Shown here: positions 50,174 through 53,624 of the stretch, in pieces
Layout of the letters: each line of letters opens with the position of its first letter
Position numbering within the stretch: position 1 is the stretch's first letter
Source of the DNA: Escherichia coli
GTDB taxonomy: Bacteria > Pseudomonadota > Gammaproteobacteria > Enterobacterales > Enterobacteriaceae
Assembly: GCF_002854065.1 (NCBI RefSeq)
Contig: NZ_CP024147.1
DNA length: 64,000 nucleotides
Direction: 5' to 3' (one strand)
The notes under the pieces: model-generated
The model's database searches: none
Told to the model about the DNA's origin: nothing
Seen by the model: only the letters and a program-made list of their open reading frames with translations
Made by a program: the position numbers and the translations under genes

Positions 50174-50952
50174 CAGTACGCCTTCCCAAGCGCCAGCCCC
50201 AGCGCGATGGCAAAGTCTCCACCTGGCGGCGGTAACGGCGGCTGACGAACAGAAACGGCCTCCCAGGGATCAAATCCGCCTTCGCCACATATCGCGACGC
50301 TTTCGGGATCAACGGATAACGCTGCCGCCAGCTCCTTCGCGCTAGTCATCCCCACCGCCAGTTTGCGCCCCCAGCGATAGCGCGTCGCCCACAGCCACTG
50401 TTCGTTATCACGCCAGGCCAGACATTGCTGATGAGAAGGTAAAAAAGGCAGGAATCGCTGTAATGCACTGGCATCCGGGGTGATCGCACTAACATGAACA
50501 CGCAACCTTTCTGCCAGAGTAAGCAGCGTTGCCAGCTCTTTGCTTTGCGCGGCAGTCACGTTATAGGCGGGACTGAGTGAGTCTTCGCTGTAATCGAAGC
50601 GCAGGGAGTCCGGATCCATATCCAGCTCGCGGGCCATCGTCCCGGAAAGCCAGGCCGTTTGCTCCCGCTCACCGAGGGACATCGGCGGGCGCGGAAATGA
50701 CCGCTGTAATGTGCGACTGGCGGGAAACGCCAACATGATGTGATGGCGCTGCGGCAGTTCGCGACTCCACGGTAACAACGTTTTAGCCAGCCGCTGCGCA
50801 TCAACAATCCGCCCATCTTTGATAATGTCGTGCGCCAGCGGCAACCGCCACCAGCGTTGCAAAAAGCATTCTTTTGCGCCCCGCACAATAGCAACCGCTA
50901 CCGCTTCTTGCTGTTGTAAATGCAAACCAATTTGCCAGATCTTAAATGCCAT
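50173..50952 (-). CDS. hofM: HofM (PilM-like; 259 aa from MAFKIWQIG)
   Basis: ORF track 268 aa; internal Met start chosen. Confidence 0.8.
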   Translation of the reverse strand: MAFKIWQIGLHLQQQEAVAVAIVRGAKECFLQRWWRLPLAHDIIKDGRIVDAQRLAKTLLPWSRELPQRHHIMLAFPASRTLQRSFPRPPMSLGEREQTAWLSGTMARELDMDPDSLRFDYSEDSLSPAYNVTAAQSKELATLLTLAERLRVHVSAITPDASALQRFLPFLPSHQQCLAWRDNEQWLWATRYRWGRKLAVGMTSAKELAAALSVDPESVAICGEGGFDPWEAVSVRQPPLPPPGGDFAIALGLALGKAY

Positions 50953-51071
50953 TGTGATGATCTCCTTATCACCCGTCACTCTGACGGGTATATCAATGCG
51001 TCTGGCTTGCCTTTATACTACCGCGCGTTTGTTTATAAACTGCCCAAATGAAACTAAATGGGAAATTTCCA

Positions 51072-53624
51072 GTGAAGTTCGTAAAGTATTTTTTGATCCT
51101 TGCAGTCTGTTGCATTCTGCTGGGAGCAGGCTCGATTTATGGCCTATACCGCTACATCGAGCCACAACTGCCGGATGTGGCGACATTAAAAGATGTTCGC
51201 CTGCAAATTCCGATGCAGATTTACAGCGCCGATGGCGAGCTGATTGCTCAATACGGTGAGAAACGTCGTATTCCGGTTACGCTGGATCAAATCCCGCCGG
51301 AGATGGTGAAAGCCTTTATCGCGACGGAAGACAGCCGCTTCTACGAGCATCACGGCGTTGACCCGGTGGGGATCTTCCGTGCAGCAAGCGTGGCGCTGTT
51401 CTCCGGCCACGCGTCACAAGGGGCGAGTACCATTACCCAGCAGCTGGCGAGAAACTTCTTCCTCAGTCCAGAACGCACGCTGATGCGTAAGATTAAGGAA
51501 GTCTTCCTCGCGATTCGCATTGAACAGCTGCTGACGAAAGACGAGATCCTCGAGCTTTATCTGAACAAGATTTACCTTGGTTACCGCGCCTATGGTGTCG
51601 GTGCTGCGGCACAAGTCTATTTCGGAAAAACGGTCGACCAACTGACGCTGAACGAAATGGCGGTGATAGCCGGACTGCCGAAAGCGCCTTCCACCTTCAA
51701 CCCGCTCTACTCGATGGATCGTGCCGTCGCGCGGCGTAACGTCGTGCTATCGCGGATGCTGGATGAAGGGTATATCACCCAACAACAGTTCGATCAGACA
51801 CGCACTGAGGCGATTAACGCTAACTATCACGCGCCGGAGATTGCTTTTTCTGCGCCGTACCTGAGCGAAATGGTGCGCCAGGAGATGTATAACCGTTATG
51901 GCGAAAGTGCCTATGAAGACGGTTATCGCATTTACACCACCATCACCCGCAAAGTGCAGCAGGCCGCGCAGCAGGCGGTACGTAATAACGTGCTGGACTA
52001 CGACATGCGCCACGGCTATCGCGGCCCGGCAAATGTGCTGTGGAAAGTGGGCGAGTCGGCGTGGGATAACAACAAGATTACCGATACGCTGAAGGCGCTG
52101 CCGACCTATGGTCCGCTGCTGCCTGCCGCAGTCACCAGCGCCAATCCTCAGGGAGCGACGGCGATGCTGGCGGACGGGTCGACCGTCGCATTGAGTATGG
52201 AAGGCGTTCGCTGGGCGCGTCCTTACCGTTCGGATACTCAGCAGGGACCGACGCCGCGTAAAGTGACCGATGTTCTGCAAACGGGTCAGCAAATCTGGGT
52301 TCGTCAGGTTGGCGATGCATGGTGGCTGGCACAAGTGCCGGAAGTGAACTCGGCACTGGTGTCGATCAATCCGCAAAACGGTGCCGTTATGGCGTTGGTC
52401 GGTGGCTTTGATTTCAATCAGAGCAAGTTTAACCGCGCCACCCAGGCACTGCGTCAGGTAGGTTCCAACATCAAACCGTTCCTCTACACCGCGGCGATGG
52501 ATAAAGGTCTGACGCTGGCAAGTATGTTGAACGATGTGCCAATTTCTCGCTGGGATGCAGGTGCCGGTTCTGACTGGCAGCCGAAGAACTCACCACCGCA
52601 GTATGCCGGTCCAATTCGCTTACGTCAGGGGCTGGGTCAGTCGAAAAACGTGGTGATGGTACGCGCAATGCGGGCGATGGGCGTCGACTACGCTGCAGAA
52701 TATCTGCAACGCTTCGGCTTCCCGGCGCAAAACATTGTCCACACCGAATCGCTGGCGCTGGGTTCAGCGTCCTTCACCCCAATGCAGGTGGCGCGCGGCT
52801 ACGCGGTCATGGCGAACGGCGGCTTCCTGGTGGACCCGTGGTTTATCAGCAAAATTGAAAACGATCAGGGCGGCGTGATTTTCGAAGCGAAACCGAAAGT
52901 AGCTTGCCCGGAATGTGATATTCCGGTGATTTACGGTGATACGCAGAAATCGAACGTGCTGGAAAATAACAATGTTGAAGATGTCGCTATCTCCCGCGAG
53001 CAGCAGAATGTTTCTGTACCAATGCCGCAGCTGGAGCAGGCAAATCAGGCGTTAGTTGCGAAGACTGGCGCGCAGGAGTACGCACCGCACGTCATCAACA
53101 CTCCGCTGGCATTCCTGATTAAGAGTGCTTTGAACACCAATATCTTTGGTGAGCCAGGCTGGCAGGGTACCGGCTGGCGTGCAGGTCGTGATTTGCAGCG
53201 TCGCGATATCGGCGGGAAAACCGGTACCACTAACAGTTCGAAAGATGCGTGGTTCTCGGGTTACGGTCCGGGCGTTGTGACCTCGGTCTGGATTGGCTTT
53301 GATGATCACCGTCGTAATCTCGGTCATACAACGGCTTCCGGAGCGATTAAAGATCAGATCTCAGGTTACGAAGGCGGTGCCAAGAGTGCCCAGCCTGCAT
53401 GGGACGCTTATATGAAAGCCGTTCTTGAAGGTGTGCCGGAGCAGCCGCTGACGCCGCCGCCGGGTATTGTGACGGTGAATATCGATCGCAGCACCGGGCA
53501 GTTAGCTAATGGTGGCAACAGCCGCGAAGAGTATTTCATCGAAGGTACGCAGCCGACACAACAGGCGGTGCACGAGGTGGGAACGACCATTATCGATAAT
53601 GGCGAGGCACAGGAATTGTTCTGA
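51072..53624 (+). CDS. mrcA: Penicillin-binding protein 1A (850 aa, GTG start)
   Basis: ORF track 858 aa; glycosyltransferase and transpeptidase motifs; start at VKFVKYFLIL. Confidence 0.95.
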   Translation: MKFVKYFLILAVCCILLGAGSIYGLYRYIEPQLPDVATLKDVRLQIPMQIYSADGELIAQYGEKRRIPVTLDQIPPEMVKAFIATEDSRFYEHHGVDPVGIFRAASVALFSGHASQGASTITQQLARNFFLSPERTLMRKIKEVFLAIRIEQLLTKDEILELYLNKIYLGYRAYGVGAAAQVYFGKTVDQLTLNEMAVIAGLPKAPSTFNPLYSMDRAVARRNVVLSRMLDEGYITQQQFDQTRTEAINANYHAPEIAFSAPYLSEMVRQEMYNRYGESAYEDGYRIYTTITRKVQQAAQQAVRNNVLDYDMRHGYRGPANVLWKVGESAWDNNKITDTLKALPTYGPLLPAAVTSANPQGATAMLADGSTVALSMEGVRWARPYRSDTQQGPTPRKVTDVLQTGQQIWVRQVGDAWWLAQVPEVNSALVSINPQNGAVMALVGGFDFNQSKFNRATQALRQVGSNIKPFLYTAAMDKGLTLASMLNDVPISRWDAGAGSDWQPKNSPPQYAGPIRLRQGLGQSKNVVMVRAMRAMGVDYAAEYLQRFGFPAQNIVHTESLALGSASFTPMQVARGYAVMANGGFLVDPWFISKIENDQGGVIFEAKPKVACPECDIPVIYGDTQKSNVLENNNVEDVAISREQQNVSVPMPQLEQANQALVAKTGAQEYAPHVINTPLAFLIKSALNTNIFGEPGWQGTGWRAGRDLQRRDIGGKTGTTNSSKDAWFSGYGPGVVTSVWIGFDDHRRNLGHTTASGAIKDQISGYEGGAKSAQPAWDAYMKAVLEGVPEQPLTPPPGIVTVNIDRSTGQLANGGNSREEYFIEGTQPTQQAVHEVGTTIIDNGEAQELF

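Follow-up and report, generated by a model that had tools for sequence, protein, structure and literature searches.

A short inverted repeat in the Escherichia coli hofM-mrcA spacer as a probable ERIC remnant and candidate leader stem-loop

A perfect 8-bp inverted repeat in the spacer between the divergent genes hofM and mrcA of Escherichia coli (E. coli) is most likely a relic of an ERIC element, shrunken to a terminal stub, and it may fold as a stem-loop in the leader of the hofM message. This assignment is based on the identity of 11 nt with the ERIC terminus, together with the presence of one to three full, truncated or miniature ERICs at the same junction in other Enterobacterales. An ERIC stub that has become a stem-loop of the hofM leader is, in our judgement, the best explanation overall, and we give it an even chance of being correct as a whole. 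Here, we describe the anatomy of the repeat, its relationship to ERIC elements, the pattern of its conservation and its predicted folds. The DNA that was analysed, hereafter referred to as the window, is a 64-kb stretch of the E. coli chromosome, the coordinates of which are converted to those of strain MG1655 by adding 3,471,799.

Anatomy of the repeat and its relationship to ERIC elements

The hofM-mrcA spacer is 119 bp long and ends at the mrcA start codon, GTG, at 51072. The repeat occupies positions 50971-50989 and is composed of ACCCGTCA (50971-50978), a CTC spacer (50979-50981) and TGACGGGT (50982-50989). The original prediction had described a perfect 8-bp inverted repeat in the hofM leader and divergent mrcA region, and both the pairing across a 3-nt spacer and the location, -37 to -19 of the hofM AUG on the minus strand, are borne out by the sequence. 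These features were described correctly; what was missed is the origin, namely the match of the 5' arm to an ERIC terminus. In the hofM-sense RNA, the repeat reads ACCCGUCA-GAG-UGACGGGU, with a ninth pair (U.G) that can extend the stem. The leader around it reads UUGAUAU-ACCCGUCA-GAG-UGACGGGU-GAU-AAGGAG-AUCAUCACA-AUG, in which the stem ends 3 nt upstream of the Shine-Dalgarno (SD) sequence AAGGAG. The hairpin is predicted to be far more stable than shuffled sequence (Table 1). A 33-nt stretch around the repeat is single-copy and is identical in 5220 of the 5441 matching records (~96%), which come from 5425 of 5426 complete E. coli genomes.

Table 1 Features of the hofM-mrcA spacer and its surroundings, in window coordinates.
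Feature	Position	Strand	Remarks
hofM start codon	50950..50952	-	RefSeq annotation
GAU-AAGGAG-AUC, hofM SD (50962-50967) in a hexaloop closed by a 3-bp mini-stem that abuts the stem-loop	50959..50970	-	96% of cells paired
Stem-loop, ACCCGUCA-GAG-UGACGGGU	50971..50989	-	-12.8 kcal/mol, z = -4.8 against shuffles; persists in the 171-nt leader fold
3' arm on the hofM-sense strand, TGACGGGT	50971..50978	-	terminal GGGT as in the ERIC right terminus
GAG loop; with the two inner pairs, the 7-nt centre that differs between species	50979..50981	-	comparison of loci
5' arm on the hofM-sense strand, ACCCGTCA	50982..50989	-	outer 6 nt invariant in Escherichia, Salmonella and most Citrobacter
TATACCCGTCA, ERIC/RU-1 consensus nt 1-11	50982..50992	-	consensus of PMC2759123 Table 1a; alignment
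Ultra-conserved spacer segment and probable mrcA promoter region, with the ERIC insertion junction at its left edge (ATAT)	50990..51046	.	
mrcA codons 1-21, almost without synonymous variation	51072..51134	.	probably holds the hofM core promoter and the proximal CRP-S site
Published yrfD (hofM) promoter fragment with two CRP-S sites	51104..51228	-	EMSA primers, PMC1635313

The published 127-nt consensus of the E. coli ERIC/RU-1 element starts with TATACCCGTCATATTTCAAG and ends with CTCGAATTATTTTGGGTATA (Delihas 2007, PMC2759123 Table 1a). When the minus strand is read in the hofM sense, the segment TATACCCGTCA, which comprises the 5' arm and the 3 nt before it, is identical to consensus nt 1-11 at 11 of 11 positions, an alignment score that was reached by none of 300 shuffles. 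It is the sole exact copy of this sequence within the 64-kb window. A genuine E. coli ERIC copy, located in the ybhI-ybhJ spacer, reads ATATACTCGTCATACTTCAAG...TTTAGAGTATAT and agrees with the consensus termini. At the right terminus, GGGT alone is common to the stub and to ERIC: the next letters in the stub are GATA, not ATA, and its right arm has TGAC before GGGT, where the subterminal sequence of ERIC is TTTT. The central core of ERIC (the ERIC1R/ERIC2 region) is absent from the 64-kb window, and the length of the stub is 19-22 nt versus about 127 bp. There is one copy of the stub per E. coli genome, compared with a median of 10 copies of the ERIC core. Given its length and the missing core, the stub is not an ERIC element and is at most a relic of one.

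The TA-rich junction GATAT/ACCCGTCA, at which the stub lies, holds ERIC material in other lineages, and all filled sites have the same orientation. A locus labelled 'Klebsiella sp. BIGb0407' (L070) has three tandem ERIC copies at this junction. In three Pantoea loci (L063, L067 and L077), an ERIC-like insert precedes the ancestral spacer, and the Cedecea neteri group has a 20-nt mini-ERIC, ACCCGTTAC-TG-TTTCGGGGT, together with the ancestral spacer. BLAST of one such Pantoea insert against E. coli was uninformative, the insert being too short or too divergent. Metagenome contigs that resemble Pluralibacter form a decay series, with a full 127-nt element in L118, an internally deleted one in L114 and a 32-nt left-end stub in L102, while in the related L062 there is only an apparent right-end relic. 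The stub state at the hofM-mrcA junction is found in L102 and in L048/52/55. An unrelated spacer, GTCMTTTTC..., which forms no hairpin, is found in Yersinia, Serratia, Mixta/Erwinia, Pantoea septica, Buttiauxella and Franconibacter. An ERIC ancestry of these spacers (GTCATTTTCA...) was not significant (p about 0.1 or worse), and they were therefore counted as empty sites.

The repeated presence of ERICs at this junction may mark the sole insertion-tolerant TA in the spacer, and the uniform orientation of the filled sites is compatible with one old insertion as well as with an orientation-dependent tolerance. Two further steps have to be assumed for the E. coli stub. Since its right arm shares only the last 4 nt with ERIC, the perfect complementarity of the arms needs an additional event, for example quasi-palindrome correction. 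Moreover, the ancestral spacer is absent downstream of the stub, unlike at the ERIC-filled sites, which requires a second deletion. As to other ERICs seen in these loci, the tandem copies of L070 (1950-2510, minus strand) have common GGGT-AT-ACCC junctions in the hofM-mrcA spacer, which suggests that the array arose by insertion into the terminal TA of a resident copy, and an ERIC with an internal insertion is located in the mrcA-nudE spacer of L027 (5100-5250).

Could the repeat be a palindrome that arose by chance and has neither shared history nor role? First-order Markov simulations of the 64-kb window yield some 7 perfect repeats with arms of 8 bp or more and loops of 3-8 nt, or 1.2 when only a 3-nt loop is allowed, and any given 119-bp spacer has a chance of about 1% of having such a repeat; the count alone is unremarkable. 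We nevertheless find this origin scarcely credible, because it leaves unexplained the exact 11-nt match to an ERIC terminus at a junction where orthologous sites hold ERICs, and the conservation of the stem in three genera. Other identities were also considered. REP/BIME elements, which are multi-copy and are usually found at the 3' ends of genes, are set apart by description from this single-copy repeat in a 5' leader. A look-alike on an E. coli plasmid, ACCGGTCAGAGTGACGGGTGAT (L085, 601-623), matches in 22 of 23 nt and occurs in intergenic positions of 16 plasmid records, at an E value of 0.6, which is the chance level. The covariance models of Rfam gave no match over 50971-50989, even at E <= 10.

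Conservation of the stem in Enterobacterales

The comparative set consisted of 80 loci from species-representative genomes and 50 metagenome contigs, to which the loci of Salmonella enterica, S. bongori and E. fergusonii were added. In the part of the spacer between 50990 and 51046, almost all positions are at least 90% identical in a range of taxa that extends from Escherichia to Yersinia and Pantoea, and the SD region, GAUAAGGAGAUC, is likewise conserved. Between these two lies a variable segment of about 20 nt, which is the repeat. Where no ERIC-like insert is present, 53-61 nt (57-61 in nearly all taxa) separate the conserved GTAGTATAAA from the ATG, irrespective of the sequence of this segment.

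Escherichia, Salmonella and most Citrobacter retain the outer 6 bp of the stem, ACCCGT/ACGGGT, around a variable centre of 7 nt. Among 13 species of Escherichia and Citrobacter, 11 of the 12 outer stem positions are invariant, versus 24 of 127 four-fold sites of mrcA (19%; binomial probability about 1e-7). The sole change, from A to G in E. albertii, yields a U.G pair. The sequence is ACCCGT-TAACGCG-ACGGGT in S. enterica and S. bongori, and ACCCGT-CAGTGCG-ACGGGT in E. fergusonii. The centre is found in at least 15 forms; in some of these, C-G has become U-A, or A-U has become G-C, and the stem is longer. The perfect 8-bp form is confined to E. coli and its close relatives, and the unit that is conserved is a GC-rich stem of 6 bp around a centre free to vary. 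Outside this clade, stems of 5-7 bp with another sequence occur in Enterobacter, Lelliottia, Trabulsiella, Pseudocitrobacter, Superficieibacter and some further contigs; the differences between genera include C-G to G-C swaps and G.U pairs that are valid on the hofM-sense strand alone. C. koseri has lost the stem, its right arm reading ACCATT, and in Kosakonia, Phytobacter, K. oxytoca and Leclercia the stem is at best weak; any function is thus dispensable. Conservation across the Enterobacteriaceae, which had been proposed as a check on the repeat, extends to the three genera named above and gives way to altered or lost sequence in the others.

Half-sites that are conserved around a variable centre, as in the Escherichia clade, would fit a dimeric DNA-binding protein equally well. 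A protein-binding operator had indeed been part of the original prediction. In a more specific form of this idea, a dimeric regulator that binds ACCCGT-N7-ACGGGT, either across the hofM leader or upstream of the mrcA promoter, would control one or both genes. The perfect dyad symmetry of the repeat and its location in a divergent regulatory spacer, adjoining the ultra-conserved block, agree with this proposal, as does the retention of the half-sites in Escherichia, Salmonella and Citrobacter. However, the half-sites are not kept in Enterobacter, Klebsiella, Kosakonia and others, in which the adjacent promoter block is conserved at about 100%. Beyond the three genera the sequence is not conserved, and the pairing is in part restored through changes in the opposite arm; the changes are pair-restoring in kind, and G.U pairs are tolerated. 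Furthermore, no second occurrence of ACCCGT-N7-ACGGGT beyond chance was found in the 64-kb window with up to 2 mismatches, and a search of the literature for joint regulation of hofM and mrcA found no paper linking the two. We know of no E. coli transcription factor with a motif that matches ACCCGT-N7-ACGGGT. On this balance an operator is improbable.

The changes within the stem point to an RNA that is read in the hofM direction. Alignments of 35 and 45 distinct sequences have helix 1 paired at 67-68%, versus 24-59% for slid controls. Five of the eight pairs change on both sides, and the covariation score of 0.157-0.178 lies above 499-500 of 500 shuffles (0.113-0.131), in a set of related sequences that includes several stem-less lineages. 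Pair 12-29 can be followed across genera as C-G, G.G, G.U and G-C. The internal pairs include 27 G.U cells versus 4 A.C cells, a bias that is diluted to 30 versus 32 when the terminal pairs are added. Many taxa have a sense fold that exceeds the antisense fold in stability, for example at -8.6 versus -1.8 and at -10.5 versus -5.9 kcal/mol. It is this stability and the G.U bias that indicate the direction of reading. Whether the stem has been selected as an RNA structure is, in our view, evenly balanced. The covariation is modest, the sequences are related and palindromes can hold their complementarity by neutral templated repair; in addition, the Escherichia clade conserves the whole spacer and not the stem alone.

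The stub could be a functionless fossil of an ERIC, its conservation being that of a constrained spacer and its complementarity the product of inverted-repeat ancestry and templated repair. The ERIC relationship itself is in keeping with such a history, as are the modest covariation, the loss of the stem in C. koseri and its decay in several genera that have retained hofM, and the silence of hofM under laboratory conditions (PMC1635313, PMC3330819). It accounts less well for an outer stem that is invariant in the same set of species in which the 7 central nt vary freely, for the rebuilding of pair 12-29 after a change in the left arm, or for the preference of the internal wobble pairs for the hofM-sense strand, 27 versus 4. 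We regard neutral decay as possible, yet on the unlikely side.

The hofM leader and the ribosome-binding site

The expression of yrfD (= hofM) is induced 16-fold by Sxy, in a manner that is dependent on CRP and cAMP, and CRP binds in EMSA to a fragment of the yrfD promoter that has two CRP-S sites (Cameron and Redfield 2006, PMC1635313). The EMSA primers map within the mrcA coding region; the CRP-S sites lie at the ends of the fragment, one of them at -246 relative to the hofM start. In 81 Enterobacterales, mrcA codons 1-21 are nearly invariant at their third positions, and synonymous sites vary freely from codon 22. These codons probably contain the core promoter of hofM and the proximal CRP-S site, as their invariance agrees with the location of the CRP-S sites and is the pattern that an embedded promoter would give. 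The start of transcription would be near 51076, with a leader of about 120 nt that includes the repeat. Since the published CRP-S sites are inside mrcA, upstream of the stem-loop, the repeat should be present in the hofM leader transcript, and we consider it likely that it is transcribed there. A scan for the CRP-S motif with 3 mismatches was uninformative (276 matches versus 333 expected).

When segments of 29, 54 and 171 nt were folded, the stem was formed in each, and the SD sequence AAGGAG and the AUG were predicted to be single-stranded in both the minimum free energy (MFE) and the centroid structures. The energy needed to open the ribosome-binding site (RBS), from -17 to +13, was computed for three assumed 5' ends. 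In silico, disruption of the 5' arm raised this cost by 1.4 to 1.9 kcal/mol and deletion of the stem by 1.0 to 4.0 kcal/mol, while disruption of the 3' arm had mixed effects at the three assumed start sites (-1.1, +0.6 and +1.8 kcal/mol); a compensatory double mutant returned to wild-type values. The GGGUGAU that is released by disruption of the 5' arm is predicted to pair with AUCAUC and to enclose the SD in a loop. The predicted effect of the stem on the accessibility of the RBS is small, and if anything the stem would insulate it.

The possibility that the repeat forms an RNA hairpin had been raised in the original prediction, and this part is supported by the comparison of genera, as the stem is kept while the loop varies and compensatory or G.U changes are found; the proposed occlusion of the hofM RBS is not supported, the SD and AUG being outside the stem in every fold. 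A stem that blocks the access of ribosomes to hofM, or an attenuator that terminates the leader transcript, would be helped by the stability of the stem and by the SD being only 3 nt away, and a hairpin that ends at -19 could sterically restrict the standby region of the 30S subunit. With the SD and AUG unpaired in all predicted structures, and with removal or disruption of the stem mostly lowering RBS accessibility in silico, occlusion is not supported, and attenuation is contradicted by the lack of a U-tract and by a terminator scan without hits; both are very unlikely. An intrinsic terminator was rejected separately, in agreement with the original prediction that the repeat is not one: the stem is GC-rich, and the sequence that follows, GAUAAGGAG on the minus strand and AUAUCAAUG on the plus strand, has no U-tract on either, the scan giving 0 sites.

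Variants of the SD mini-stem (Table 1) preserve its pairing, as GAC/GUC in Yersinia, AAU/AUU in L068 and GCGAU/GUCGC in Phytobacter, and the GAU-AAGGAG-AUC motif also makes a conserved GATC Dam site. In the MFE structure of the 171-nt leader, the invariant GCAAGCCAG and hofM codons 6-11 are joined in a long-range helix (50920-51003, minus strand), the overall z being only -1.0. The stem-loop, the SD and the AUG would all be enclosed by this predicted helix.

The region next to the repeat has features of its own. Segments 50990-51046 and 51072-51134 form a block of about 145 bp that is at least 90% identical at nearly every position in 81 Enterobacterales, the synonymous sites of mrcA codons 1-21 included. 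The only variable parts around it are 51047-51071 and the hairpin spacer, and it is far more conserved than ordinary promoters. Presumably, the mrcA promoter and the CRP-S promoter of hofM overlap in this block. Within it, at 51012-51039, TTTATA-N16-TATAAA is a pair of -35/-10-like elements that is identical on both strands; a consensus scan did not call it, and it is a possible symmetric bidirectional promoter. An in-frame ATG at 51048, 24 nt upstream of the annotated mrcA GTG, would give an ORF of 858 rather than 850 amino acids, and gene calls of Salmonella mrcA differ in the same way, with 850 amino acids at L136 and 858 at L137. The only weak Rfam match, to asponA (RF02812, anti-ponA RNA; E = 0.079, far under the gathering score), is found at 51201-51226 on the minus strand, antisense to the 5' region of mrcA/ponA, where the hofM leader or promoter is expected.

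Comparison with known systems and significance

The proposed history could be described as follows. A miniature transposable element of the ERIC/IRU type would have landed at the one permissive TA of the hofM-mrcA spacer, at the edge of the ultra-conserved block, and would later have lost its interior, leaving a terminal stub with two self-pairing ends. From the Sxy/CRP-S promoter inside mrcA, the stub would be transcribed in the hofM leader of about 120 nt and would fold there as a stable stem-loop of 8-9 bp that ends 3 nt before the SD. Selection may have kept the stem in Escherichia, Salmonella and most Citrobacter while the loop drifted; in other Enterobacteriaceae it would have been altered or lost. 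In this account its most probable role would be structural and exerted on the hofM message: the stem would lock its own G-rich 3' arm, which could otherwise pair downstream of the SD, and would leave the RBS unsequestered.

Stable stems in leaders are established in other mRNAs as impediments to the 5'-end-dependent attack of RNase E, and stem-loops of the 5' UTR, such as the ompA 5' hairpin and other obstacles to RNase E scanning, shape mRNA stability or the folding of the leader. The putative hofM leader resembles the ompA type in having a predicted stable GC-rich stem upstream of an exposed SD, which would insulate the RBS from alternative pairing. As a stable obstacle in the 5' UTR, the stem could shield the hofM message from 5'-end-dependent decay. 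An effect on the folding, translation or stability of the hofM message is inferred, and a specific role of the stem on the hofM mRNA is a tentative proposal that we hold to be doubtful.

The hofM stub, which is likely to be transcribed as part of an mRNA and is predicted to form a hairpin, is similar in this respect to the ERICs of Yersinia (review PMC2229807). It is also similar to Correia/NEMIS and other co-transcribed MITEs, in that an inverted repeat from a mobile element lies between promoter and start codon and could act at the RNA level (PMC2229807). However, Correia/NEMIS elements are full-length, multi-copy and substrates of RNase III, for which the hofM stub is too short. The CRP-S/Sxy competence promoters (Cameron and Redfield 2006) belong to the same operon, and the repeat lies downstream of the yrfD/hofM CRP-S sites. 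Unlike these, it is no CRP site: it does not have the TGCGA-N6-TCGCA core and is outside the EMSA fragment.

In its most far-reaching form, the proposal is that a terminus of a MITE was domesticated and has been a selected cis-acting RNA element of hofMNOPQ since the common ancestor of Escherichia, Salmonella and Citrobacter, which, with the mini-stem that presents the SD in a loop, would set translation or stability. We offer this as a speculation that is unlikely on present evidence. Such a domesticated stub might also be the binding site of an RNA-binding regulator.

If the reading as an ERIC stub kept in the hofM leader is true, the repeat would be a small and datable case of a bacterial MITE that decays to a terminal stub and is retained as a leader stem-loop, and it would bear on how repeats of the ERIC type seed regulatory RNA structure. 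The finding is modest and largely ordinary, with no major picture altered by it, and the ultra-conserved block of 145 bp next to the repeat may be of greater interest. For E. coli, the repeat is a concrete and easily mutated element in the leader of hofMNOPQ, a DNA-uptake (competence-pilus) operon that is transcriptionally silent in the laboratory.
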